Shown in pieces: positions 7,696 through 62,066 of a DNA stretch of 64,000 nucleotides; positions within the stretch are counted from its first letter, which is position 1; each line of letters starts with the position of its first letter. The notes beneath the pieces are model-generated. The model saw only the letters and a program-made list of their open reading frames with translations. It had not been told where the DNA came from and ran no database searches. This stretch comes from a virus (lineage: Duplodnaviria; Caudoviricetes). The translations under genes were made by a program, and so were the position numbers. Where the stretch lies: IMG/VR virus record IMGVR_UViG_3300025011_000016. One strand, written 5' to 3'.

Positions 7696-8769
7696 TTAGA
7701 GACTTCGTATAGCCGCTTCGAGGATGGAATTGGACGGGGTATAACCGTCAATACTGTTGAAAGAATCCTTAACAACCTTAAATCTTAAGAATGTTTTTAG
7801 AATCGATTGATAATCTCTCGCCTCTTCTTTATATGCATCAATTTCAACACGGGCGATAGTCGATACTAAAGTTATAGTAAATCGCATCATCTCACTCGAA
7901 TGCCCAACAAATGGTGCAATTTTTGAGTAATCGTCACCTTTAAATTTATTTGCAGCTTGATTAATTGCTGTGATTGAGCGGTTGATAAGAGTAGTCGCCT
8001 TTTTTTCCTTTTCAGTTATAACATTAATAGTCTTATCTTTATTTTTCAAAGAAGTCATCATCTCTTCTCTGGTAGGTCCATTAAATGATTCAAATTCTTG
8101 TTTTTCAGTTTCATTATTCCGACATGCCTTTTTGAGATTATCCTGGAACTCACTCAAAGATTCAGCACCTAGAACCTTGAGAAGCTCTTCTTTCGAATTT
8201 TCGGCGTTATACTCTGACTGAAGTGTATCTTTATGTTTGGTTAACGCATCTTGATGTGCTGAAGATGAGACAGCGTTTCCCTCAATATCTTTAGCATAAT
8301 CCTCATGCGCCTTTGCAATCTTCCCAAGCTTATCAGATACTGCACTCTGTGCACTTTCAATAGTGTATTTAAATCCTTTATATTTAAACCCCTTGGGGTT
8401 TTTGCCACGAATTTCAGTTTCAAATTTGGTAACAAACTCTTTACCTGAAGAAAATATGAGACTTAGAGCCCGGCGAACAACCTCATACCAAGATTTGAGT
8501 TTATCCATTAACGTTTTAAACATACTCTTTATCCGCGTCCACATGTCAGTGGCAAATCCTTCTAATAGAATATCTACCGTCGAGGTCCCTTCAAATACGG
8601 ATTCCTCCATCATAACATCCGAAATGTACATACCCGCCCGTATTTGATAAGATTCTTTCGCCGATTCTGTAATAATTAGATCATGACCTTCGGATGTTGG
8701 AATAGTATTAGGATAAATTATACTATCTTGACTGGATTGAATATTTTCCCGTTTACTGAAAATAGACAT
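7696..8769 (-). CDS. Internal head (phiKZ_IP-like) protein paralog 2
   Basis: ILLEG|FATDMWTRIKSMFK...SGKEF...GFKYKGFKYT, clearly similar to 8809..9864. Confidence 0.7.
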   Translation of the reverse strand: MSIFSKRENIQSSQDSIIYPNTIPTSEGHDLIITESAKESYQIRAGMYISDVMMEESVFEGTSTVDILLEGFATDMWTRIKSMFKTLMDKLKSWYEVVRRALSLIFSSGKEFVTKFETEIRGKNPKGFKYKGFKYTIESAQSAVSDKLGKIAKAHEDYAKDIEGNAVSSSAHQDALTKHKDTLQSEYNAENSKEELLKVLGAESLSEFQDNLKKACRNNETEKQEFESFNGPTREEMMTSLKNKDKTINVITEKEKKATTLINRSITAINQAANKFKGDDYSKIAPFVGHSSEMMRFTITLVSTIARVEIDAYKEEARDYQSILKTFLRFKVVKDSFNSIDGYTPSNSILEAAIRSL

Positions 8770-8808
8770 AACTTTATTTCCTCCTTCACTCTAGTTATAT
8801 TTATTTAA

Positions 8809-9864
8809 TTACGCTTCTTTTTTATAACGAAACGCGGCCATACATACAGCTTTATAATCATTATTACGAGCAAGAACTGCAGATTTCCAAGCCCCAAAAT
8901 ATTGAAGCGCGATAGTCTTTGCTTCACTAAAGGCGGACGAACGTTTTTGTGCTACAGCGACCATGTTATAATGCGCGGTACGAGTTGTATCAGCAATATC
9001 TTTTTTACCAGCATTAGTCTGATGCTCCCGTCCCATTTTATCAATTTTTGAAATTTCATCCTTAAATATTTTTTCACAATCTGCTTCAGCATCTTTTGCT
9101 TTCTTTGCTGCCGTTTCAGATTTAAGTGTATTGATAATGTCCCCAATATTGATAGGTTTCTCTTCTTTATCAGTTTCATCTTTGGCCCCATTGCGGAAAT
9201 GCCGATATAAGGCCTCAGTGTACTCATCTTTATCAAGATCATTTACACCACAATAAGTTCCTCTTAACTTGTTGAAAATTTCATCTTTAGTCTCATCAAA
9301 TTTCTCAATTTGAGATTCTATTTTCTCCCCACTGGTATAATTTAAAACAACAATGGCTGAGCTGGCAGTAGTTAAGAATGTGTTTGCCTTGTCACTACCG
9401 TCAATGTTTGTGTATTCAAACATCTTATATTTGAATCCACCAAGAGTTAAACCTCTCAGATCTTGTTCATGCTTAGTGGCAAAATCTTTGCCTGATTTAA
9501 ACATGTTGTCAAAAGCCCGAATGACTGAATTAAAAAACGCCCTGAGTTTACCAAGCATATTGGTAAAGAAAGCTTTAATACGCTCCCATACATTACCAGC
9601 CATACCCTCGGTGACGGAATTAAACTTCTCCATACGGGCATCGATTTCCAAAGCATCGGCTCCAGATTCTTGGAGGATTTTAACATCCTTCCGCATTTCC
9701 AAATCCTCCATGTCAAGCGCATGGATAGATTCAATAACTCCAAGTAGATCCTCATATCCTTCTTGTACGGCTAAAAGCTCGCCGTTGAATTCGGTATGAT
9801 AACCTTCATAAACAGGTATACTCACATCAGTATTTGTGGATGATTTTCTAGCGAAAATACTCAT
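8809..9864 (-). CDS. Internal head (phiKZ_IP-like) protein paralog 1
   Basis: SVTEG|MAGNVWERIKAFF...SGKDF...GFKYKMFEYT. Late promoter upstream and expression-type codon usage. Confidence 0.7.
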   Translation of the reverse strand: MSIFARKSSTNTDVSIPVYEGYHTEFNGELLAVQEGYEDLLGVIESIHALDMEDLEMRKDVKILQESGADALEIDARMEKFNSVTEGMAGNVWERIKAFFTNMLGKLRAFFNSVIRAFDNMFKSGKDFATKHEQDLRGLTLGGFKYKMFEYTNIDGSDKANTFLTTASSAIVVLNYTSGEKIESQIEKFDETKDEIFNKLRGTYCGVNDLDKDEYTEALYRHFRNGAKDETDKEEKPINIGDIINTLKSETAAKKAKDAEADCEKIFKDEISKIDKMGREHQTNAGKKDIADTTRTAHYNMVAVAQKRSSAFSEAKTIALQYFGAWKSAVLARNNDYKAVCMAAFRYKKEA

Positions 9865-9938: not shown

Positions 9939-10925
9939 TTACAGTAATTTGAATCCATTACCATCTGAAGATTCAGATTGGGTTGCCACATCATTAATTG
10001 TCCAACCACGATTTTCTTTATTGAGTTCATCCATAGATTTTGATTCACTTGTAGTATGATTAACTCGTATTTTATCTGATATAGATTGAAGTTGACGAAT
10101 AACTTCACTTTGCTTCTTAATAACAGCAGATTTCTTATTTGCTGGTAAAGCAGCAATACCAATACTATTCTTATTCAATTCAATAAAGGCCGCCTGTTGT
10201 TTTAAGTAATCGGACATTCTCATTCTCGAATGATAGAAATAAAAGATTAATTCTCTTATGATGGGCACTAATACTAATACGCCACCGATTATTAATGTAG
10301 GCACAATGATATCATCAATACCTATAACACTTTCTTTACCACTATTAATAACACCGTTAATGGCTTTTGAGAAATCACCCGATTTAACACAACCATTAAA
10401 CTTATCAAGATTTTGAATACATATCCAACCAGTTTGTTTAGTATTCTTAATAATAGTAAATTCAATTCTATCTGGTCGTTTAATGTAATCTACATATGAA
10501 GAGATAATAGAAGATATTGCCTCAACACATGCACAAACTAAAAGGTTATATTGGAGAATAATGAATTCTTTCTCAAGTTTAAATCCTTTTTCAAATGCAT
10601 CTCTATAAGCAGTAATATTAGATATGGATTTATCAACTATATCCAATTCGGATATAGTTATATTGGATTTAGTTGCAATATCCCTTAAAAGAGCAATACT
10701 ACTCATCATAGATTTGTAACCACTATATCTGGTGATATCACCAGCACTAATAGGGATATCTTCAAAATTAATATGGGATTTTTCTAATGCAGATTTATAT
10801 AGATTGGATATCATAGTATTATTAACTTGAGCCTGTTCGGATTCCATTAATCCATAAACTTTATTTCTATCAGCAAATGTCATAGCATTTTCAAGTAATA
10901 TAACCATCATTGGATTATTAATCAT
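9939..10925 (-). CDS. Putative virion structural protein
   Basis: 328-aa ORF with RBS GGAGG in the late head cluster; N-terminal LLEN/LMES processing-like motifs. Confidence 0.6.
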   Translation of the reverse strand: MINNPMMVILLENAMTFADRNKVYGLMESEQAQVNNTMISNLYKSALEKSHINFEDIPISAGDITRYSGYKSMMSSIALLRDIATKSNITISELDIVDKSISNITAYRDAFEKGFKLEKEFIILQYNLLVCACVEAISSIISSYVDYIKRPDRIEFTIIKNTKQTGWICIQNLDKFNGCVKSGDFSKAINGVINSGKESVIGIDDIIVPTLIIGGVLVLVPIIRELIFYFYHSRMRMSDYLKQQAAFIELNKNSIGIAALPANKKSAVIKKQSEVIRQLQSISDKIRVNHTTSESKSMDELNKENRGWTINDVATQSESSDGNGFKLL

Positions 10926-10934
10926 ATTAATACA

Positions 10935-10960
10935 CCTCCATTATTTTATAACATAAATTA
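10935..10960. repeat. 26-bp exact direct repeat, copy 1 (copy 2 at 11295-11320)
   Basis: CCTCCATTATTTTATAACATAAATTA flanks the HEXXH gene on both sides and includes a stop codon and an RBS on the minus strand. Confidence 0.9.
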
Positions 10961-11287
10961 ATTTTCTTTATTAATTGTAAAATTATATTCATACAATTCT
11001 ATTGCTCTATCGAATAACAGATTAAATGCTCCTTCCCATTCAACCCCATGCTCATCATTTGGTCTAGCAGTATGTGCTAATTCATGCGCTAAAATCTCAG
11101 GTAACGCTGAAAGTGGAATATCGGTTGATATATCAATTAACGGTGTGCTACCGTCGTCCGGAAAAGTTGTTCTTCCTGCTCCTTCTAAACCATCTATATA
11201 TTGAATATCTGCCAAAATTTCAGGAAATAATTCTTCAAACGCTTTTAATACAAAAGGTATTGGATCATTAATAATTTTTAATACCAT
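10958..11287 (-). CDS. Small zinc metallopeptidase-like (HEXXH) protein
   Basis: EILAHELAH followed by EHGVEW (SprT/WLM-like HEXXH...H.W). Confidence 0.65.
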   Translation of the reverse strand: MVLKIINDPIPFVLKAFEELFPEILADIQYIDGLEGAGRTTFPDDGSTPLIDISTDIPLSALPEILAHELAHTARPNDEHGVEWEGAFNLLFDRAIELYEYNFTINKEN

Positions 11288-11294
11288 ATTATAC

Positions 11295-11320
11295 CCTCCA
11301 TTATTTTATAACATAAATTA
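11295..11320. repeat. 26-bp exact direct repeat, copy 2
   Basis: Identical to 10935-10960. Confidence 0.9.
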
Positions 11321-12634
11321 CATCTTATTCATTAGTTTAAGAATTTCTTTAGTATCTGTCTTAGCAGAATTCTCTCTTTCTAATCCATTGAAGGTTACTG
11401 ATTGATAACTCTTTTGTCCATCAAATAAGAAATGGGCTATTTGTGTGGAACTATCCACGACAACAAAACCTAATAAGAAATATGTTTCCATGATCTTATC
11501 TACAAACATTGGATTCATTAGATCAAAACCATAATGAGTTTTAATAAATTCCACTTCTTGTGCTGAAACTACAATAGTCGTATTAGGTAAGATTTTATTT
11601 GGTAGAAATAATCTGTCCTTCATCTTGGCCATAAGCTTCTTACGTTTTAATGTTATCCACCAAGGAGATGCACCTTGACTTCTACTAACAACATCATCTT
11701 TTATTTCTTTAATATTAAATAAGAAGTCTTTAAAGAATTCTGTTTCACCAGTAGTCCATTTAATAAAGTTAAAGAACTTGTTATCATTGTTACAACCATT
11801 GATAAGATTAGTTATCATTTCATCAGAATTTATCGGATGCATAGTTGTTTTAACCCCAATGATAAAATCTTGATAACCGTGGTTTAATCCGTCATTGTCT
11901 ATTACATTAACTCGAATATGCAAAGTTGTAGGGACTAACTCATTGGATTTTTTTACATCATTATCCAACAATACTTTTTCATTCATCTTAACATCATTAT
12001 CTTTTGGTTTAGCTATACTTTGGTATTTTGATGGGGTATCTTTATCCAGATTTTCAGTTATAATTTGATTATGACGAGCTGACACTTCTGGATCTTTAAA
12101 GACATATAAATTATTTCTAGGATTAAATTTACTATTGACACTTTCCATGACAACATAATCTAAAATACTCATAAGTTGTTCATTATTACATTTTAGTACT
12201 TTAGTAGTTGATCCTTCACAAGTAATGGCTAATATATGCATATTTCCAGTTTCACTAACAAAACAATTATAGTTCTCAATAATATGAGCATCAACGGCAC
12301 TATTAGTAAGATCATTTCTATCAGTTTTAATATCAAGGTTCTGGTGAAATTTCTTTAAATACCCAGCAGCATCTATATCTGAATCGAGATTAAGCATAGG
12401 ACTCATTGTAAGAACAATCTGTGTGAAAGATGAATATTCACGTTCAAGTGCTTTAGATATAGTTTGTAAAGTATCTATATCCATAGATCTAGATACCAAT
12501 ACTGGAAATTGTAAAGTCCCTTCGGCACTACGTTTTGATATAGATGAATACTTTTTACTTTTAAAGTACTCTTCAGCAGTACCAACAACATTTATTGCTT
12601 TAATTGTATCGAGGACATCTCTTAATAATCCCAT
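11318..12634 (-). CDS. Putative virion structural protein
   Basis: 438-aa ORF with a late promoter at 12671-12682 in the head gene cluster. Confidence 0.65.
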   Translation of the reverse strand: MGLLRDVLDTIKAINVVGTAEEYFKSKKYSSISKRSAEGTLQFPVLVSRSMDIDTLQTISKALEREYSSFTQIVLTMSPMLNLDSDIDAAGYLKKFHQNLDIKTDRNDLTNSAVDAHIIENYNCFVSETGNMHILAITCEGSTTKVLKCNNEQLMSILDYVVMESVNSKFNPRNNLYVFKDPEVSARHNQIITENLDKDTPSKYQSIAKPKDNDVKMNEKVLLDNDVKKSNELVPTTLHIRVNVIDNDGLNHGYQDFIIGVKTTMHPINSDEMITNLINGCNNDNKFFNFIKWTTGETEFFKDFLFNIKEIKDDVVSRSQGASPWWITLKRKKLMAKMKDRLFLPNKILPNTTIVVSAQEVEFIKTHYGFDLMNPMFVDKIMETYFLLGFVVVDSSTQIAHFLFDGQKSYQSVTFNGLERENSAKTDTKEILKLMNKM

Positions 12635-39300: not shown

Positions 39301-39577
39301 CAATAATGTTAATAATATTCGTTAAATATTATAAAGGATAAAATCCTTTCTCTATCTTTCAATAGAAGTTCAGACTATTTCATCATCTCATTAGAGATGC
39401 TTCTTATTTTGATTCACACTTGTAAATCTAAGAACTCTACCGTTCTAGTCGTTGAACCTTATTCTTTTGTAAGAATATTGGCTGCGGATTGTCCAATCTA
39501 TATTAGTAAAGCCCTAAGAAGTTTCCCGCAATTAAAGAAGTTTGCATTATATATCACTATACAATGGGACGAATTCC
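39301..39577 (-). ncRNA. Group I intron 6 of the RNAP gene (277 nt, ORF-less)
   Basis: P1 GGAU/GUCC with the U.G splice pair; core motifs AATTGCGGGAAAC, AATCCGCAGC, GTTCAACGACTA, ATAGTC; omega-G 39301. Confidence 0.85.
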
Positions 39578-39711
39578 ATCCTCGCTAAAATTGAGCCCGG
39601 TGCTATGGTGGAACTTATTTCTTCATTAGGCCGAGATAAGGCGTATGGTTCAAAACCTTCCTCGACCACCTCCCCTATGATAGACTTGAGAGCGGTGAAA
39701 TAGACAATCTT
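39578..39711 (-). CDS. RNA polymerase beta-like subunit, exon 6 (134 nt; not in the ORF track)
   Basis: KIVYFTALKSIIGEVV...PGSILAR completes the GDK motif begun in exon 5. Confidence 0.8.
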
Positions 39712-40931
39712 CTTTATATTCATACATGTCCATAAGCATGTATAAGTTCACATATGGAACTTCCCTAAGTTTCCTTAGGATACTAGACTATATCTTCATC
39801 TCTTAATAAGGTAATTACTTCTTAGATAGAGATGCTTCTTATTTCGATTTAAGGGGATTTCACCCACCCATTTAGGCCCTACTCCTATTGTGTATTTCAA
39901 CACTAAAGGATAGTCGTTGAACGATATGTTGTAAGACATTCTTTATATATACCTTTATATAATTTACCCTGGTTTAATTTTTTTAACATATTTTTTAATT
40001 TTTTTGAATCATAATCAAATTTAGGTAATATATCTTTTATACGTATACCTTGAATCAACATATTACTCATCTCAATAATATCTTCTTTACTATAAGTTTT
40101 ATAATATATTTTATCATTATCCCATACATACAAATCACTTATAGCTCTCCAACTTTTTCTATGTTTAATTTCAGATAACATAGATAATATATTCGGTCTA
40201 TCTTCCCAATGAAATATATTAATTATTTTTGTTAAACTATATCCCAATACAAAGTATTTACATATTTGATGTACTTCATCGTTTGTAAAGAATGCTTTAA
40301 AGTGTCTGTCACAATTCTCATAAAGGTTATTCTTAGCGGCGTGTGCCTTATTTTCATTAGCAGTCACCCATTCTAAATTATCAACCCTATTATTTAATTT
40401 ATTACCATCTATATGATTAGCCTCTAACTCTTCTATAATATTATTGGGTAATGGATTAAAATGGATCAATACCAAACGTTGAACTGAAAATTTTTTGTAC
40501 TTCTTATTATCTACCTCTAAAGCAACACGACAATATCCTTTTTCATTACCGGGGTTATTAAATCCTAATATTTTATTTCGTTCAATGTTCTTTACCCTAC
40601 CATGATCACTAATCATATACTTAGGTTTGATATTTTTATACACTATATCTTTCCATTGCTCATGGTCAGTTACAATATTTATAAATAATTTCATAGAAAC
40701 ACCTCTTTAATTTTTATATTAGATATACGTTTAGCCATATATTATTAGTTATTTTTCTTACAACACATTCGCTGCGGATCATCCAATCTTTATCATTATT
40801 ACTTATACTAGGTTAATTACTCCCAGTCATTAATATAAAATTAATTAGTAGATAGAGCAATAAGGATATCCCCGCAATTAAAGAAGTTTTTTACTAATAT
40901 ATCACTATACTAGGGAGACAAACTGTATGTA
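39712..40931 (-). ncRNA. Group I intron 5 with an HNH homing endonuclease in P6a
   Basis: Perfect P1 GGAGAU/GUCUCC; core motifs present; P6a arms at 40756-40768 and 39924-39936 enclose the HEG; omega-G 39712. Confidence 0.85.
39903..40694 (-). CDS. NUMOD4-HNH homing endonuclease (I-HmuI-like)
   Basis: EQWKDI...YMISDHGRV (NUMOD4); NHIDGNKLNNRVDNLEWVTANEN (HNH); RBS GAGGTG. Confidence 0.9.
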   Translation of the reverse strand: MKLFINIVTDHEQWKDIVYKNIKPKYMISDHGRVKNIERNKILGFNNPGNEKGYCRVALEVDNKKYKKFSVQRLVLIHFNPLPNNIIEELEANHIDGNKLNNRVDNLEWVTANENKAHAAKNNLYENCDRHFKAFFTNDEVHQICKYFVLGYSLTKIINIFHWEDRPNILSMLSEIKHRKSWRAISDLYVWDNDKIYYKTYSKEDIIEMSNMLIQGIRIKDILPKFDYDSKKLKNMLKKLNQGKLYKGIYKECLTTYRSTTIL

Positions 40932-41657: not shown

Positions 41658-41838
41658 CATTATATTCATATAGATTATAAACCTATACAGTTCTCAAATG
41701 AACTTCCCTAATGTTAATTAGGATACTAGACTATATCTTCATCTTATAAAGATGATCCCTATTTCGATATATAAATATATCTACGAGTTCTCACTCTAGT
41801 CGTTGAACCTGTCTTATAGTAATATAGAAGATTATAAG

Positions 41839-41848
41839 TATATATTAT
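41839..41848 (+). promoter_or_regulatory. Early-type promoter motif TATATATTAT inside intron 4, antisense to the RNAP gene
   Basis: Exact match to the motif found upstream of other non-structural genes. Confidence 0.55.
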
Positions 41849-41886
41849 ATTAATAGATAATAAAATAAAGGAGCCAAATAATTACT

Positions 41887-41949
41887 ATGTTCCACGTTAT
41901 TATATTCTTTATGTTGCTTCGTATTCTCAGTCGTTTAGGTAAAAAATAA
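41887..41949 (+). CDS. 20-aa hydrophobic peptide MFHVIIFFMLLRILSRLGKK (not in the ORF track)
   Basis: RBS AAAGGAG upstream; first ORF after the early motif. Confidence 0.4.
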   Translation: MFHVIIFFMLLRILSRLGKK

Positions 41950-41966
41950 TTAGGGAGTGTTTTACT

Positions 41967-42332
41967 ATGATTACACCAAAGGATATTTTAATGAACTTAA
42001 TTCAAACTGCACAAGACGATGAATTATTTCAAGAAAATGCCATTGAGTTAACCAACAGATTTTTCTATAATCGATTTCTTAGTGTCTTAAAACAATATAA
42101 CGGTGATGAGGCTAAGGCATATGACGCCTTCATCGTAAAAAAGAATCTATATCTCTTCAATTTATATATTGAGGAGTTCATTGATTTACAGCGTTCCACT
42201 TATCAATCTATGTATCCATCACAATGGACTGAGAATCCATATAATATGGTTTTACGTAAAGAACTCAGACAGATTCATCATTATCTATGTGCCGACCCAA
42301 GAATACTTGACATGCCATCATATCACGGATAA
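41967..42332 (+). CDS. Hypothetical 121-aa protein antisense within intron 4
   Basis: RBS AGGGAG, ATG start, normal composition, own terminator at ~42348-42377; no HNH, GIY-YIG or LAGLIDADG motif. Confidence 0.7.
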   Translation: MITPKDILMNLIQTAQDDELFQENAIELTNRFFYNRFLSVLKQYNGDEAKAYDAFIVKKNLYLFNLYIEEFIDLQRSTYQSMYPSQWTENPYNMVLRKELRQIHHYLCADPRILDMPSYHG

Positions 42333-42347
42333 TCTATTAATACTATA

Positions 42348-42377
42348 TGGGTGATTTTATATCACCTCTCTTTTTTT
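42348..42377 (+). terminator. Intrinsic terminator of the antisense cassette
   Basis: GGTGAT-tttat-ATCACC followed by TCTCTTTTTTT. Confidence 0.6.
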
Positions 42378-42492
42378 ACTATAAGACTTGGCTGCGGATT
42401 GTCCAATCTTTATTATATAAAGCTCTAAGGAGTTTCCCGACAATTAAAGGATATTCTTTATACATTCACACATATAAAGGGCATTTTAGTTT

Positions 42493-42724: not shown

Positions 42725-43012
42725 CTTTCATGCACATGAGTTATTAGCACATGCAGTTCTCTTACGAACTTCCCTAACTTTCATTAGGATAATAGACTAT
42801 ATCTTCGTCCTTTATTTTTTTTATATAAAGGAGTTTCTTATTTCGATACATAAAGTATCTACGAGTTCACACTCTAGTCGTTGAACCTTCCTCTTATAAA
42901 GAGACTTGGCTGCGGATTGTCCAATCTTTATCTTATAAAGCTCTAAGGAGTTTCCCGTCAATTAAAGAAATGACTTTAAATATATTACTATACTTATGCG
43001 ACAGTATTATTC
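42725..43012 (-). ncRNA. Group I intron 3 (288 nt, ORF-less)
   Basis: P1 GCGAU/GUCGC; core motifs present; omega-G 42725. Confidence 0.85.
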
Positions 43013-43032
43013 ATCGCAGTTCTTGTACTATC
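43013..43032 (-). CDS. RNA polymerase beta-like subunit, 20-nt micro-exon 3 (DSTRTA-M)
   Basis: GAT AGT ACA AGA ACT GCG AT, bounded by omega-G 43033 (7-bp P10) and the P1 of intron 3. Restores RDDSTRTAMASKQ, like beta HDDANRALMGANMQ. Confidence 0.8.
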
Positions 43033-43807
43033 CGTAACCATTCATGTTTCCATAAATGACAGACTATATCTTCATCTACATAGTTACATGTTTAGATGTC
43101 CTCCATTTCGGCTTATAAATAAACCTACGAGTTTACACTCTAGTCGTTGAACCTTTCTCTATAAAAAATAGTAATATCATACTCTGAATTTATATATCAT
43201 ATACTTGAATATAATAAAATAATGGAGTTGAATTGATATGATATGATAATAAATGATATCCATAATATAACAGACTTCGATCAGTATATAGAATTCTATA
43301 CTCAATTAACTAATACATATGGTAAACTAAATCATTATATCTCCAAAATATTTGAAAGGCGTGGAAATATCAGTATTGACCATCTACCAATTAAATCACA
43401 TAAACTTAAACTCGGTACTCTTTTATATCATGTATCCGAAACTAAATATGATTTTTTAAAATCATCATTTAAAAGTAGAGATGAATTTTTATACTCTGAA
43501 AATAGAATATATTTTACTACAGACATCGAATCATTAGAGCCACATTTTAAAAAGTATCGATATGTCTATATGTATGTAGTTACAGGTAATGAAAATACAT
43601 TTATCGACTATGAGTATAATAATAACAAATCATTCTATATATCTAATGATAAACCATTTGAAATTAAAGAGGTTCAACTTCTTTAATTTTTTTATAGAGA
43701 CTTGGCTGCGGATTGCCCAATCTTTATATTATAAAGCTCTAAGGGGTTCCCCGACAATTAAAAGGATTCTTATTATGTATTTCTACATAAAGGGACAATA
43801 GTAATTT
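43033..43807 (-). ncRNA. Group I intron 2 (775 nt) with an antisense ART-like gene in P6a
   Basis: P1 GGGAU/GUCCC; P10 of 7 bp; P9.0 GU/AC; P6a arms at 43157-43168 and 43688-43699. Confidence 0.85.
43243..43686 (+). CDS. ADP-ribosyltransferase-fold (Arr-like) protein, antisense within intron 2
   Basis: LLYHVS...NRIYFTT...YVYMYVVTG...FID...SFYISNDKPFEI parallels Arr FYHGT...NHIYFT...VYIVEPTG...D...SYRS..P. RBS TGGAG; early-like motif TATATATCAT at 43191-43200. Confidence 0.55.
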   Translation: MIINDIHNITDFDQYIEFYTQLTNTYGKLNHYISKIFERRGNISIDHLPIKSHKLKLGTLLYHVSETKYDFLKSSFKSRDEFLYSENRIYFTTDIESLEPHFKKYRYVYMYVVTGNENTFIDYEYNNNKSFYISNDKPFEIKEVQLL

Positions 43808-44091
43808 ATCCCGTGTTACACCCAATGGTGATAATAATTCAGCAGGAGAAAATAAATTTGAATCTTTTAATTTATCCAATTGATCATTCTTTATGTCAAT
43901 ATAACCCCTCGGACTAACTATATTAGGTTCTAATGTTAACTGTCTAACGATACCACAGTTTGCGTCGGGTGACGTTGATATTGCTATAATACCTAACATA
44001 GTTTCATCATACGCTCTCTTATCTTGGGTATAAGCGTTATCTTCGTTCATCCCACTAAATCCCTTTTGGGATATCACACGACCTTTTTCCA
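43808..44091 (-). CDS. RNA polymerase beta-like subunit, exon 2
   Basis: T|TG GAA AAA gives NPIVELEKGR...SPDANCGIVRQLT...GVTRD; 284 nt. Confidence 0.85.
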
Positions 44092-44374
44092 CAAATAGTT
44101 AACATTATTTGTTAGATAATGTAAAGATGTTATCTTTCTCTATTTTTCAATAGATGTTCAGACTATATCATCATCTCCATTGAGATGCTTCCCGTTTCAG
44201 TTTAAGGAATTAACTTCCACTCACTTGAGCCCTATAAGTTAGTCGTTGAACCTTATTCTATCATATAGAATATTGGATGCAGATTGTCCAATCTTTATAT
44301 TATAAAGCACTAAGGGGTTTCCTGCAATTAAAGAAGTTTGCATTATATATCACTACATAATGGAACTACGAAAA
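44092..44374 (-). ncRNA. Group I intron 1 (283 nt, ORF-less)
   Basis: P1 GAAU/GUUC; core motifs present; omega-G 44092. Confidence 0.85.
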
Positions 44375-47024
44375 ATTCAACTATGGGATTTAGTGTAGAA
44401 TAATCTTCAATCGTCTGACCCATTAATAATTCTTTAGTTACGTAATCCCTGGGAAGTGAAATACGGACTGGATTATTGTTGTTAGCAGTTGCTTTATACC
44501 TACTATACTGCTGAGCAATACCTTGATATAAAATTGCACTTACTACCTCATTGGAACGAATCCTATAAAGACTCATATCCTTTTCATTAATATATGAATT
44601 ATCAGATAATAAAGCATTGGCAAATAACATTAAACTTACAAAATCTGTAGGATAATTTAAGTCTTCTAGAACTTCTTTGGTGATTGGATCTATTAAAAAC
44701 TCATAAAAGTTATCAAAAGCGTTACCGATTATCTTAGTATTAAACATGGTATCAAATATTGTTAGATACGTTTCCTTATCATCAAAATCTGTATATTCGA
44801 ATGCTTTAGTAGGTACATCGACAAAGGCATTCATTAATAAAGAATTCTCAAAGGGATTCACATCATATACAAGATACCCATCTGAAAATTGAATTGAATT
44901 TTCATTATCAGCAAGTTTTGGTCGTTTATCAACAAATTGATGTTTGATATTGGCTTTCTTCAGCACTGAGGTTAAACCCTCTACATACCCTAATAATAAT
45001 ACTAATGGTACATTTTTTTTCATAATATACGCTCTTGTGTAAGAAAACTTTTTGCCAGCTTTAGTATCTTCAAATTCTTTGAATGCTTCACCTGAAGATA
45101 CTGACATTATAAAATCAACAATATCGAAATTACCCATACGTTGAGTACTATAGTTCATAATGATAGGACTACGAGGATTTATGAAAAATCCAATACAGAA
45201 CTCATCTTCTTTAAGTTTAGTTTTATATTTAACTAATAAATCATGAACTTCGTTTTGATCAAAATAGAACTCACAATTTGATATTTTAATATATGAGATA
45301 TATTTCGATAATTCATCATATTCCAATAGAGATTTGTACTTAGAGTTATTATTGGCATTATTACCATATTTGATAATTACACCAGATCTGGGTATAGATA
45401 TGACTTTCTTAAATCTTTCTATTTTGGATGAAACTTTGTTGCCATATCTCATAATAAAGATTTTTTTATAGTTACTACAAACCTGAACCTTATCGGGCCC
45501 AATCTTTATTACAGGTTTAGAGAACAATTGCTTATTGATAATCTTCTTATTACCATTTAGATATAAGAATTTATCATCAATAAACTTAGGCATATCAAAC
45601 TTTAATTTATGTCGGACTCTATTTGAATCTTCAAGTTCAACCGAAAAAGTCTCTCTGTAATTTAATTCATCAGAGCTATCTTCAACGTCTATCTTTCTAA
45701 CAAATACAGGAAGGCCCTTATCATTTAAACATGTTAATGTATTGGCAACATCAGCATGATACAGATTTTCATTATACGACTTTTCAAAGAAAGGATATTT
45801 AATTCCAGTCATATTTTTGTTAATAGTATTAACATTACTCGTCACATCAATTGACGGAATAAAAGATTCTTTTAATTTAATATTTCTGGCTTCATCTAAA
45901 GTCATTTTACCCAACATAATATTCTTTTGATTTTCTCTTAACTCAATATCTCTTTTTAATGACTGAGGAGTTCTACCAACTTTCTTTTCCTGATTAAGTG
46001 TATAGATTTCCTTTAATAACTTCTCGTCATTAACTAATACATTCTCCAATTTATCTTTTAATTCCTTTGTAGTTTGGGTTTTGGCTTCAGGTGAATTAAC
46101 TAACTCATCTATTCTAGAAGTAATAGCTTCCTGAAATTCTTCATCGTTATCTCCTTCAGAAACTTCTTCATCTTCATCTTGAGGATCATCTGGATGATTC
46201 CCAGTAAAACCGAATGTATATAAGAATTTACCCAGAAGATCATCTCTAATTTCTTGAACTTCAATTTGTCTATCTAGGTCTTTATCGTTATCGGTAATAT
46301 TCATATCAGGTGCAATCTTAATTAATTCTCTTCTTAATACCGTATAAGATTTATCATCACATAATGATGGATTGACTCGTATCATAGTATTTCCACCATA
46401 AATTAATATATTGATATCTCCAAGTTCTTGAAACTTCTTAAAGAACTTATGCATAGCATAATAGATAATAAATACAGGATTATTTAATACCATCTTTTGT
46501 TTCATTGACGCTCTAACATTCTTTACCCAACTATCGGCATCGATACATATAGTTTTAAGATTATACTCATCATATTTAGAATCCACCAATATAGACTTTA
46601 TTAAATCCATATAAGCTAATATCTTAACATTAAATTTTATCTTTACTCCATATTTAAAAAAGATCTCATTATATTTAGATAAATCCACATAAACATTCTT
46701 ACCATCAATACTATCTAACTGAGTCGGTGTATTAATAAATGATAATTTAGAATTTACTTCAGAATAGATTAACTGTCTCTCCTTATTAACTAATGATCTA
46801 TATGTTTTATTGAATAATTTACCTTTATATGATTGATCGATAAAATAATAATGGAATTTATTGTTATGATATATTAGAGGATTATTAATAAGGTTAATAG
46901 ATGATTGTAAAGTATTGTTATTGATAAGAACTAGGCTGTGTAATGTGGGTGTTTTGGGATTTACATCTAAAACCGTTTTCTGTTTATATAATTTTAGATG
47001 CGGTGTACTAGAAACACTATTCAA
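44375..47024 (-). CDS. Multisubunit RNA polymerase beta-like subunit, exon 1 (probably virion RNAP, phiKZ gp178-like; spliced length 1476 aa)
   Basis: Exon lengths 2650+284+20+232+726+134+385 = 4431 nt, one open frame with beta motifs. Late promoter and size suggest the virion enzyme. Confidence 0.8.
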
Positions 47025-50238: not shown

Positions 50239-50324
50239 TCTATGAAATAAAGAATATGATAATTCGTATTCTTTATTTTTTTAAGTATATATTATATTAG
50301 TATATAGAAAGGGGATGTAATATA

Positions 50325-61850: not shown

Positions 61851-62066
61851 TCATGTTGTCACCTTGTCGGACATTGCCAACTTTATCACAAGGGATCGCA
61901 ACCGGTCTGCTTCTTCCTTTAATCGTTCTGTCTCACCCAACAACTCCGAGCAAGCCAAGTTTACAGCCGCATTCCTGCTTATCCCGCAGCCCTTAGCGTA
62001 AGCGTCTAAATCTTTCAAGAGTGGGGCAGAGAAGTGAATTAGTGCGGGCTTCTTTTTCTTTTCCAT
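61851..62066 (-). CDS. CopG-like ribbon-helix-helix protein
   Basis: LIHFSAPLLKDLDAYAKGCGISRNAAVN. Confidence 0.6.
   Translation of the reverse strand: MEKKKKPALIHFSAPLLKDLDAYAKGCGISRNAAVNLACSELLGETERLKEEADRLRSLVIKLAMSDKVTT

Follow-up and report, generated by a model that had tools for sequence, protein, structure and literature searches.

In the td intron of phage T4, the P6a loop houses the sense-strand gene for I-TevI, a GIY-YIG homing endonuclease responsible for intron mobility. Introns that carry genes on the opposite strand have also been described. An antisense open reading frame (ORF) is present in an intron of Didymium S956-2 (PMC3679873), and the capsid-gene intron of mycobacteriophage LittleE, whose splicing was verified by reverse transcription PCR, carries the antisense homing endonuclease gene gp14 (PMC3706429). 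Gene g189 of Bacillus phage AR9 is annotated as joined from six pieces, with the HNH gene g190 in one of the introns. Differential RNA sequencing (dRNA-seq) demonstrated that g190, nested in an intron of the late gene g189, is served by an active early promoter of its own (PMC5312081), and AR9 thus offers a direct experimental precedent for an early unit nested in the intron of a late gene. The locus described here is intron 2 of a virion RNA polymerase (RNAP) beta gene in the metagenomic virus record IMGVR_UViG_3300025011_000016, of which a stretch of 64,000 nucleotides (the window) was analyzed. Six group I introns interrupt this minus-strand gene, and the P6a loop of intron 2 contains, on the opposite strand, an ORF of 147 amino acids (aa) whose product is predicted to adopt an ADP-ribosyltransferase (ART) fold.

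Taken together, the evidence described below makes it probable that the P6a loop of intron 2 carries an opposite-strand early cassette, that the encoded protein is an ART-fold member of a jumbo-phage family and modifies the host using NAD+ (nicotinamide adenine dinucleotide), and that the loop is a neutral parking place. In the proposed course of events, the injected virion RNAP would transcribe the cassette within minutes of infection, before the late RNAP-beta pre-mRNA is made and in the direction opposite to it. The 17-kDa product would bind NAD+ and ADP-ribosylate a host macromolecule, leading to host shut-off or counter-defence. Late in infection the minus strand would be transcribed, and the intron would be spliced out of the RNAP-beta mRNA together with its cargo. 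The intron loop may be only a selectively neutral parking place, as the insert would never disrupt the essential gene because splicing removes it. The antisense orientation would keep the translation signals and the ribosome-loaded ORF of the cargo out of the sense pre-mRNA ribozyme, while temporal separation would limit head-on transcription conflict.

The window belongs to an AR9/PBS1-like jumbo phage from groundwater metagenomes, and its DNA is AT-rich. The 880-aa product of the N-terminal exon of the large minus-strand gene shares ~30% identity with the virion-RNAP beta subunits of Bacillus phages AR9, PBS1, and BpSp, and is likewise ~30% identical to those of staphylococcal and Listeria jumbo phages. 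Several groundwater metagenome assemblies and a JGI contig of 241,705 bp contain the window sequence as well. At gathering score, searches with Rfam models identified three complete, ORF-less minus-strand group I introns (44384-44138, 43022-42772, and 39603-39350); relaxed thresholds revealed three more on this strand, each split by an insert. The features that define intron 2 are as follows.

43033..43807, minus strand: group I intron 2 of the virion-RNAP beta gene, 775 nt (split RF00028 matches, P1, terminal G, and an ungapped spliced product versus the AR9 exon)
43808..44091, minus strand: exon 2, 284 nt, ending ...GVTRD (exon model; homology to AR9, BpSp, and Machias)
43013..43032, minus strand: 20-nt micro-exon encoding DSTRTA(M), the DxxRxxM motif (exon model; AR9 homology)
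42725..43012, minus strand: ORF-less paralogous intron 3, the comparison sequence (RF00028, 82.8 bits)
43688..43699, minus strand: P6a 5' arm CUCUAUAAAAAA, perfect 12-bp complement of 43157-43168
43157..43168, minus strand: P6a 3' arm UUUUUUAUAGAG, perfect 12-bp complement of 43688-43699
43169..43687, plus strand: antisense gene cassette, inserted as 519 nt in the P6a loop (the paralogous intron 43012..42725 lacks it)

These features identify intron 2 as a putative group IA-like self-splicing intron of a late-type virion-RNAP beta gene. The two RF00028 half-matches that flank the ORF (43813-43655, 28.7 bits, E 5e-4; 43210-43040, 30.3 bits, E 1.7e-4) do not individually reach the 50-bit gathering score, solely because the model is split by the 519-nt insert. 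The 5' splice site lies after U43808, with a P1 helix (GGGAU/GUCCC) that contains the U-G wobble, and the intron ends at G43033. In the exon model for this region (47024-44375, 44091-43808, 43032-43013, and 42724-42493, minus strand) all introns end in G, all upstream exons end in U, and the frame is open for 1476 aa. The predicted junction peptide, ...SPAELLSPLGVTRD/DSTRTAM/ASKQSKH (slashes separate its three parts), gives an ungapped alignment with the contiguous AR9 exon (...GPAELLNSFTARHADPPRVGMQTTQQKH) and also aligns with Machias (...KHADSPRIGM). Predicted splicing restores the conserved DxxRxxM motif of the beta subunit, wherein DSTRTAM aligns with DPPRVGM of AR9. When the 519-nt insert is left out, intron 2 is 70% identical to the ORF-less intron 3, which has a short hairpin as P6a, and the P3-P7 cores of the two introns are nearly identical. 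An earlier reading of the window, made from the sequence alone (the sequence-only reading), had given the intron as 43033-43807, and these coordinates were reproduced exactly by the splice-site model and the AR9 alignment. Its placement of a 147-aa plus-strand ORF between the P6a arms is borne out by the ORF call and the perfect 12-bp complement.

The micro-exon at 43013-43032 is located between two complete group I introns and also gives the P1 strand UGCGAU to the next intron. Models with a 15-nt or 9-nt micro-exon and twintron models were rejected, as AR9 homology favors the 20-nt exon. In BpSp, a similar micro-exon lies at a distance of a few codons, likewise between two introns in the same motif region, which marks the DxxRxxM region as an intron hotspot.

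The cassette within the P6a loop contains the following features.

43191..43207, plus strand: AR9-type early-promoter-like element TATATATCAT-N6-G, a match to the AR9 consensus, with G43207 as the predicted start site
43224..43227, plus strand: Shine-Dalgarno (SD) sequence GGAG, 10 nt before ATG 43238 and 15 nt before ATG 43243
43238..43246, plus strand: two-codon mini-ORF (ATG ATA TGA) whose stop overlaps the ATG of the 147-aa ORF (ATGA)
43243..43686, plus strand: 147-aa ORF with an ART-fold prediction (ORF call; family alignment; model)
43262..43287, plus strand: 26-nt segment deleted in one population variant (contig L010, 3380-3540, one metagenome scaffold; contig comparison)
43660..43694, plus strand: terminator-like 14-bp AT-rich hairpin (43660-43690) and U-run, spanning the stop codon (folding free energy -11.7 kcal/mol, z -2.9)

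From this layout, the P6a loop is predicted to be an autonomous opposite-strand unit comprising an early promoter, an A-rich leader with an SD sequence, an ORF, and an AT-rich hairpin with a U-run. The early promoter consensus of AR9, AAATATATATTAT-(6N)-G, was determined by dRNA-seq and primer extension and ascribed to the injected virion RNAP (PMC5312081). The element in intron 2 (TATATATCAT-atactt-G) fits this consensus at nine of ten core bases and in the N6-G portion, with AAT-T in place of the upstream AAA, so the early-type motif noted in the sequence-only reading does match the AR9 consensus with one mismatch. The window contains 11 copies of the exact core TATATATTAT versus 2.7 expected (0 of 100 shuffles reach 11), most of them a few tens of nucleotides upstream of an SD sequence and start codon and followed by similar A-rich leaders. 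When one mismatch is permitted, the 10-mer shows no enrichment in the window (33 versus 32 expected). The C variant of the core seen in intron 2 also occurs upstream of an SD sequence and a 71-aa ORF at 62066, and the promoter/leader/SD layout of the cassette is common to five other genes. The TATATATTAT core is also found in two unrelated metagenomic contigs (L003 and L007). Because the exact AR9 core is kept both in these contigs and in the window, a distant groundwater relative of AR9, the promoter specificity of the virion RNAP seems to be conserved well beyond cultured Takahashivirus, judging from the sequences compared. Host-type promoters are not indicated, since a sigma-70 promoter scan identified 19 sites versus 21.7 in shuffles. 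Downstream of the promoter, the mini-ORF lies at the canonical 10-nt spacing from the SD sequence and could couple or throttle translation of the 147-aa ORF, or serve as a competing start. The terminator-like hairpin resembles another hairpin with a U-run at 50244-50283. The statement in the sequence-only reading that no terminator is evident was therefore in error, as the 14-bp hairpin and U-run are present; the element is weak, and readthrough is possible.

The 147-aa ORF is, on the basis of sequence comparison, a real gene of a small, previously unnamed jumbo-phage family whose members are free-standing elsewhere. An exhaustive phmmer search of 1.8 billion representatives identified six homologs (P0002-P0007; E 8e-19 to 2.7e-5; 31-40% identity), with two further matches dropped because of low complexity. 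The resulting seven-sequence family alignment (A1) contains 15 invariant positions (M1, G58, T59, L61, H63, L72, D80, Y84, R88, I89, Y90, F91, G115, D122, and E124). All six homologs are free-standing genes in ordinary gene arrays of phage-like contigs, two of which are 209 and 250 kb in length. Furthermore, P0002 and P0003 are each found downstream of an exact AR9-type early promoter, which supports an early-gene family of AR9-like phages. The intact 147-aa ORF is present on 17 contigs from several samples, all representing one phage population. Searches of Pfam, PHROGs, NCBIfam, and PADLOC returned no family for the ORF or its homologs, and phmmer and profile searches of PDB sequences gave chance-level matches only (troponin T and a barnase motif). 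No relative of the ORF was detected by tblastn against 50,697 phage records, and a search of viral, metagenome, and genome contigs for related loci returned pattern matches, none confirmed as a relative. Reads from four DNA runs yielded only contig fragments and intron-paralogue joints with sides shorter than 30-40 nt, which are not readable as a cargo-less allele.

The fold of the 147-aa protein was probed with AlphaFold2 (AF2). The model obtained from the single sequence has a predicted local distance difference test score (pLDDT) of 37, and the model obtained with the seven-sequence family alignment has a pLDDT of 83.8 and a predicted template modeling score of 0.73. The model consists of an N-terminal helix and β-hairpin (residues 1-49) followed by a β-rich core. 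In a wide VIA-align search of 48,161 PDB representatives, almost all of the listed matches are ART-superfamily chains: AvrPphF/HopF (Z 7.1), Tpt1 (Z 6.0; range for Tpt1/KptA 4.8-6.1), CopC (5.5), Tne2 (5.3), TccC3 (5.0), diphtheria toxin (5.0), Scabin (4.8), and Arr (4.5), together with RES, ParT, MbcT, DarT (3.3), pertussis toxin, iota/C2/Vip2, and AcrIF11. HopF/AvrPphF and Tpt1/KptA are the best structural matches of the model, and a second-look structure search gave the same ART-dominated picture. The higher-probability Foldseek entries are Tpt1/KptA, Tne2, TNT, and ART-PolyVal-like proteins, with the Swiss-Prot entries mostly Tpt1. Independently of the structure comparisons, in an ESM-Atlas feature search Arr clusters account for 55 of 100 matches (score 0.93); with Arr excluded, the search returns viral PARP-like, DarT-named, Tox-ART-HYD1, exotoxin A, and ART-PolyVal clusters, all of the H-Y-E/D clade. 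On the predicted strands, the positions of H63 (strand 60-65), Y90 (strand 83-92), and D122/E124 (strand 119-121 and after) follow the order expected for this clade. The evidence for the predicted fold lies in the homogeneity of the ART list rather than in any single score, and the modeled protein probably represents a new, unnamed family within the ART fold and its H-Y-D/E clade. The ART-like fold that the sequence-only reading had proposed from an H-Y-[D/E] pattern is supported by the pLDDT of the family-based model, the near-exclusive ART list, the ESM-Atlas features, and the invariance of H63, Y90, D122, and E124.

The same reading had placed the protein closest to Arr (PF12120; PDB 9iaf). 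Similar to the phage protein, Arr is a minimal ART (~140 aa) with the motif order xxYH, IYF[ST], and an acidic residue after a Y-x-Y-x-V...G strand-turn. The VIA-align match to Arr covers 85 residues at 14% identity, and the alignment ranges (model 57-147 versus chain 12-113) would fit H63, Y90, and D122 at the H-Y-D positions of Arr, by interpolation only. In contrast to Arr, the phage protein lacks the EPTG...DPN...FPGNPT motifs and possesses an additional N-terminal helix and β-hairpin of ~50 aa. An alignment of Arr (A5) was assembled from five sequences in plasmid records, which were found with a 22-aa probe that matched at 100% identity; EPTG, DPN, and FPGNPT are invariant in this alignment and absent from A1. 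Membership in the Arr family was rejected, as hhalign against A5 gave a probability of 0.45% over nine columns, pairing only NRIYFTT with HIYFSA. No match to PF12120 at E <= 1 was obtained for the ORF or its homologs, nor were any Arr chains matched by phmmer or hmmsearch of the PDB. Arr is the commonest named family among the ESM-Atlas features, whereas the Pfam and hhalign comparisons do not place the protein in it, and HopF/AvrPphF and Tpt1/KptA are better structural matches. A rifamycin substrate would be implausible for a phage that has its own RNAPs.

Relationships to nucleases and to other phage ARTs were also considered. None of the homing endonuclease domains searched for in Pfam, PHROGs, and NCBIfam (HNH, GIY-YIG, LAGLIDADG, PD-(D/E)xK, and His-Cys box) was detected in the ORF, in agreement with the earlier remark that it contains no HNH, GIY-YIG, or LAGLIDADG motifs; as a positive control, the HNH ORF of intron 5 was recognized in that Pfam search. 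A relationship to barnase and microbial RNases was rejected, as it consists of a motif match (E 0.3-1) in which, of the catalytic positions Glu73, Arg87, and His102, the residues at His102 and Arg87 are not conserved and which finds no counterpart in the fold searches. In phage T4, the ARTs Alt, ModA, and ModB act on host RNAP and other proteins at or close to the onset of infection, and it is to these early-acting phage-encoded enzymes that the 147-aa protein is likened in function here. They differ from it in clade (R-S-E), in their larger size, and in not being carried by introns, and no sequence link or specific structural link between them and the 147-aa protein was found. Alt is also mentioned in the study of AR9 transcription (PMC5312081).

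Several observations weigh against an expressed, NAD+-using ART. The Z scores of 3.3-7.1 fall in the range that VIA-align terms 'middling', and no significant sequence or profile match to a named ART family was obtained (Pfam, PHROGs, NCBIfam, PDB profiles, and hhalign against Arr). Foldseek of the model, which the sequence-only reading had suggested as a check, returned nothing at E <= 0.01 against the PDB, BFVD, and AFDB, with ART entries standing out by probability alone. The single promoter mismatch lies at a conserved position of the consensus, and the SD sequence is 15 nt from the ATG of the 147-aa ORF, with the mini-ORF at the better spacing. The AR9 virion RNAP is reportedly sensitive to single deviations in its promoters (PMC5312081). 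Additionally, contig L010 carries the 26-nt deletion allele, which frameshifts the 5' end of the ORF and leaves a 135-aa ORF open from ATG 43254, far from the SD sequence; the gene may therefore be dispensable or decaying in part of the population.

Some of these points are accommodated by explanations other than the one proposed here. The same cassette and fold could encode an enzyme directed at nucleic acids or at NAD itself, through Tpt1/KptA- or DarT-like ADP-ribosylation of the ends or bases of RNA or DNA, or through a Tne2/Tse6/TNT-like NAD glycohydrolase activity. Tpt1/KptA is the most frequent and best-represented structural match and is among the top matches (Z 6.0-6.1); like the phage protein it is two-lobed, with an N-terminal lobe preceding the ART lobe, and the KptA alignment covers residues 1-145, N-terminal lobe included. 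The NADases Tne2 and Tse6 are matched at Z 5.3-5.5, and DarT is represented both by a structural match (Z 3.3) and by a DarT-named cluster in the feature search. Catalysis by Tpt1 depends on an Arg-His-Arg-Arg tetrad, three residues of which are in the N-terminal lobe. This tetrad has no counterpart among the invariant residues of the phage family, in which residues 1-57 contain no invariant Arg or His and R88 is the only invariant Arg, and membership in the Tpt1/KptA family was rejected on these grounds and for want of a PF01885 match. The family motifs instead fit the H-Y-D/E pattern, Pfam gave no match to PTS_2-RNA, DarT, or TNT, and the structural scores lie within ~1-2 Z units of each other, such that the ranking of ART families is uninformative. 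A nucleic acid- or NAD-directed enzyme is considered unlikely, although it is the rival to be taken most seriously.

A second possibility is a decaying passenger, in which a former early gene entered the intron loop by recombination and now has little or no expression and no role. Insertions in an intron loop are neutral, and the mismatch in a promoter class reported to be mismatch-sensitive, the suboptimal SD spacing with its competing mini-ORF, and the frameshifting deletion in the population would all be expected of such a gene. However, the ORF is intact on the 17 contigs noted above, all 15 family-invariant residues are kept (15/15), the whole promoter/SD/ORF/terminator layout is intact, the C-variant promoter precedes another SD sequence and ORF, and in the deletion allele, too, 132 of 147 codons remain in an open frame that starts at the other ATG. 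These observations make a decaying passenger quite improbable. Finally, the protein could be an unconventional intron mobility or maintenance factor that replaces a homing endonuclease, given that the same loop holds an HNH/NUMOD4 gene in the paralogous intron 5 and that intron 2 has no nuclease of its own. This is the least likely of the rival explanations and is regarded as very improbable: no search revealed a nuclease domain or fold, all homologs are free-standing with none in introns, and the weak barnase motif (E 0.3) lacks the catalytic His and is unsupported by the fold search.

Intron 2 is not alone in carrying an antisense cassette. The corresponding features of intron 4 and the exact copies of the promoter core in the window are as follows.

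41658..42492, minus strand: intron 4, whose P6a loop contains a second antisense cassette (split RF00028 match)
41839, plus strand: promoter of the intron 4 cassette, exact TATATATTAT
41888-41950, plus strand: SD sequence and 20-aa hydrophobic/basic peptide
41967-42332, plus strand: SD sequence and ORF121, 121 aa
42349-42377, plus strand: GC hairpin and T8 terminator
771, 36442, 36542, 41839, 47122, 49600, 50286, 51052, and 52987, plus strand: exact TATATATTAT copies
13046 and 36368, minus strand: exact TATATATTAT copies

ORF121 belongs to no known family, and a homolog with 63% identity (P0011) is free-standing. The only nuclease among the six introns is the sense-strand HNH_3/NUMOD4 homing endonuclease gene of intron 5 (39903-40694, minus strand). 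Unlike AR9 g190, no AR9-type early motif was seen upstream of this gene. In two groundwater runs, the contig word-depth of intron cores (39350-39603, 39763-39948, 41706-41837, 42865-43155, and 44138-44384) is ~4-9 times that of the exons, which suggests that many paralogous copies of this intron family exist in the phage or the community.

Comparison with the systems introduced above helps to define what is new at this locus. The AR9 g190/g189 pair shares with it the host gene (~30% aa identity), group I introns, an intron-borne gene with an early promoter, and the promoter consensus itself. In contrast to g190, a sense-strand homing endonuclease gene, the cargo in the window is antisense and ART-like and lacks a nuclease domain. 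The LittleE intron is likewise a phage self-splicing intron with an ORF on the opposite strand, yet its cargo is a LAGLIDADG/HNH-type homing endonuclease, and the host gene, phage group, and intron family differ. The T4 td intron, of group IA, likewise interrupts an essential phage gene and has a protein-coding gene in its stem-closed P6a terminal loop, whereas the cargo of intron 2 is antisense and not a nuclease. In the cultured relative Bacillus phage vB_BpuM-BpSp (KT895374), the RNAP-beta introns at 8726-9379 and ~10900-12437 also contain ORFs on the opposite strand (gp249 in one intron, gp246 and gp247 in another), so that antisense ORFs occur in introns of the homologous gene. None of these three proteins is related to the 147-aa or the 121-aa protein or falls into a Pfam family, and the insertion sites differ by a few codons. 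In the BpSp record, the RNAP exons are annotated as separate genes and the intron ORFs as hypothetical proteins. No description of non-nuclease antisense or ART-like cargo in a phage group I intron was found in the literature searched, coverage of which was incomplete. The sequence-only reading regarded phage intron ORFs as almost always sense-strand homing endonucleases; antisense orientation is less exceptional than this suggests, with precedents in the LittleE homing endonuclease gene and the BpSp ORFs. The novel part of the locus is the non-nuclease, ART-like cargo, as the separate parts have precedents in AR9 g190 and LittleE gp14.

A broader and considerably more doubtful proposal may also be considered, wherein the P6a loops of an expanding intron family in AR9-like jumbo phages are a dedicated landing site for early cassettes (introns 2 and 4 and BpSp) and early antisense transcription across the intron gates the late splicing or expression of RNAP-beta. 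In this proposal, the new H-Y-D/E enzyme would mark a host-specific target, such as thymine-containing host DNA, from which a phage with dU-DNA would escape, or the host RNAP, which the phage does not need.

Phage group I introns are usually regarded as vehicles for homing endonucleases; what intron 2 carries instead appears to be an entire accessory gene with its own promoter. Its product, a candidate NAD-dependent modifier, comes from an uncharacterized early-gene family of jumbo phages; the gene is inserted backwards in the loop that usually holds a nuclease gene, and a sister intron 800 nt away bears a different antisense cassette. The locus also offers a small natural system in which to examine convergent early and late transcription alongside ribozyme folding. 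Should the cassette be expressed, cargo of this kind will be overlooked by gene callers and intron databases restricted to sense-strand nucleases, and the protein would offer biochemistry a new small ART family with a ~90-aa core and a 50-aa N-terminal lobe. Expression would further imply that the intron loops of essential genes can be safe harbors for host-takeover or counter-defence genes.

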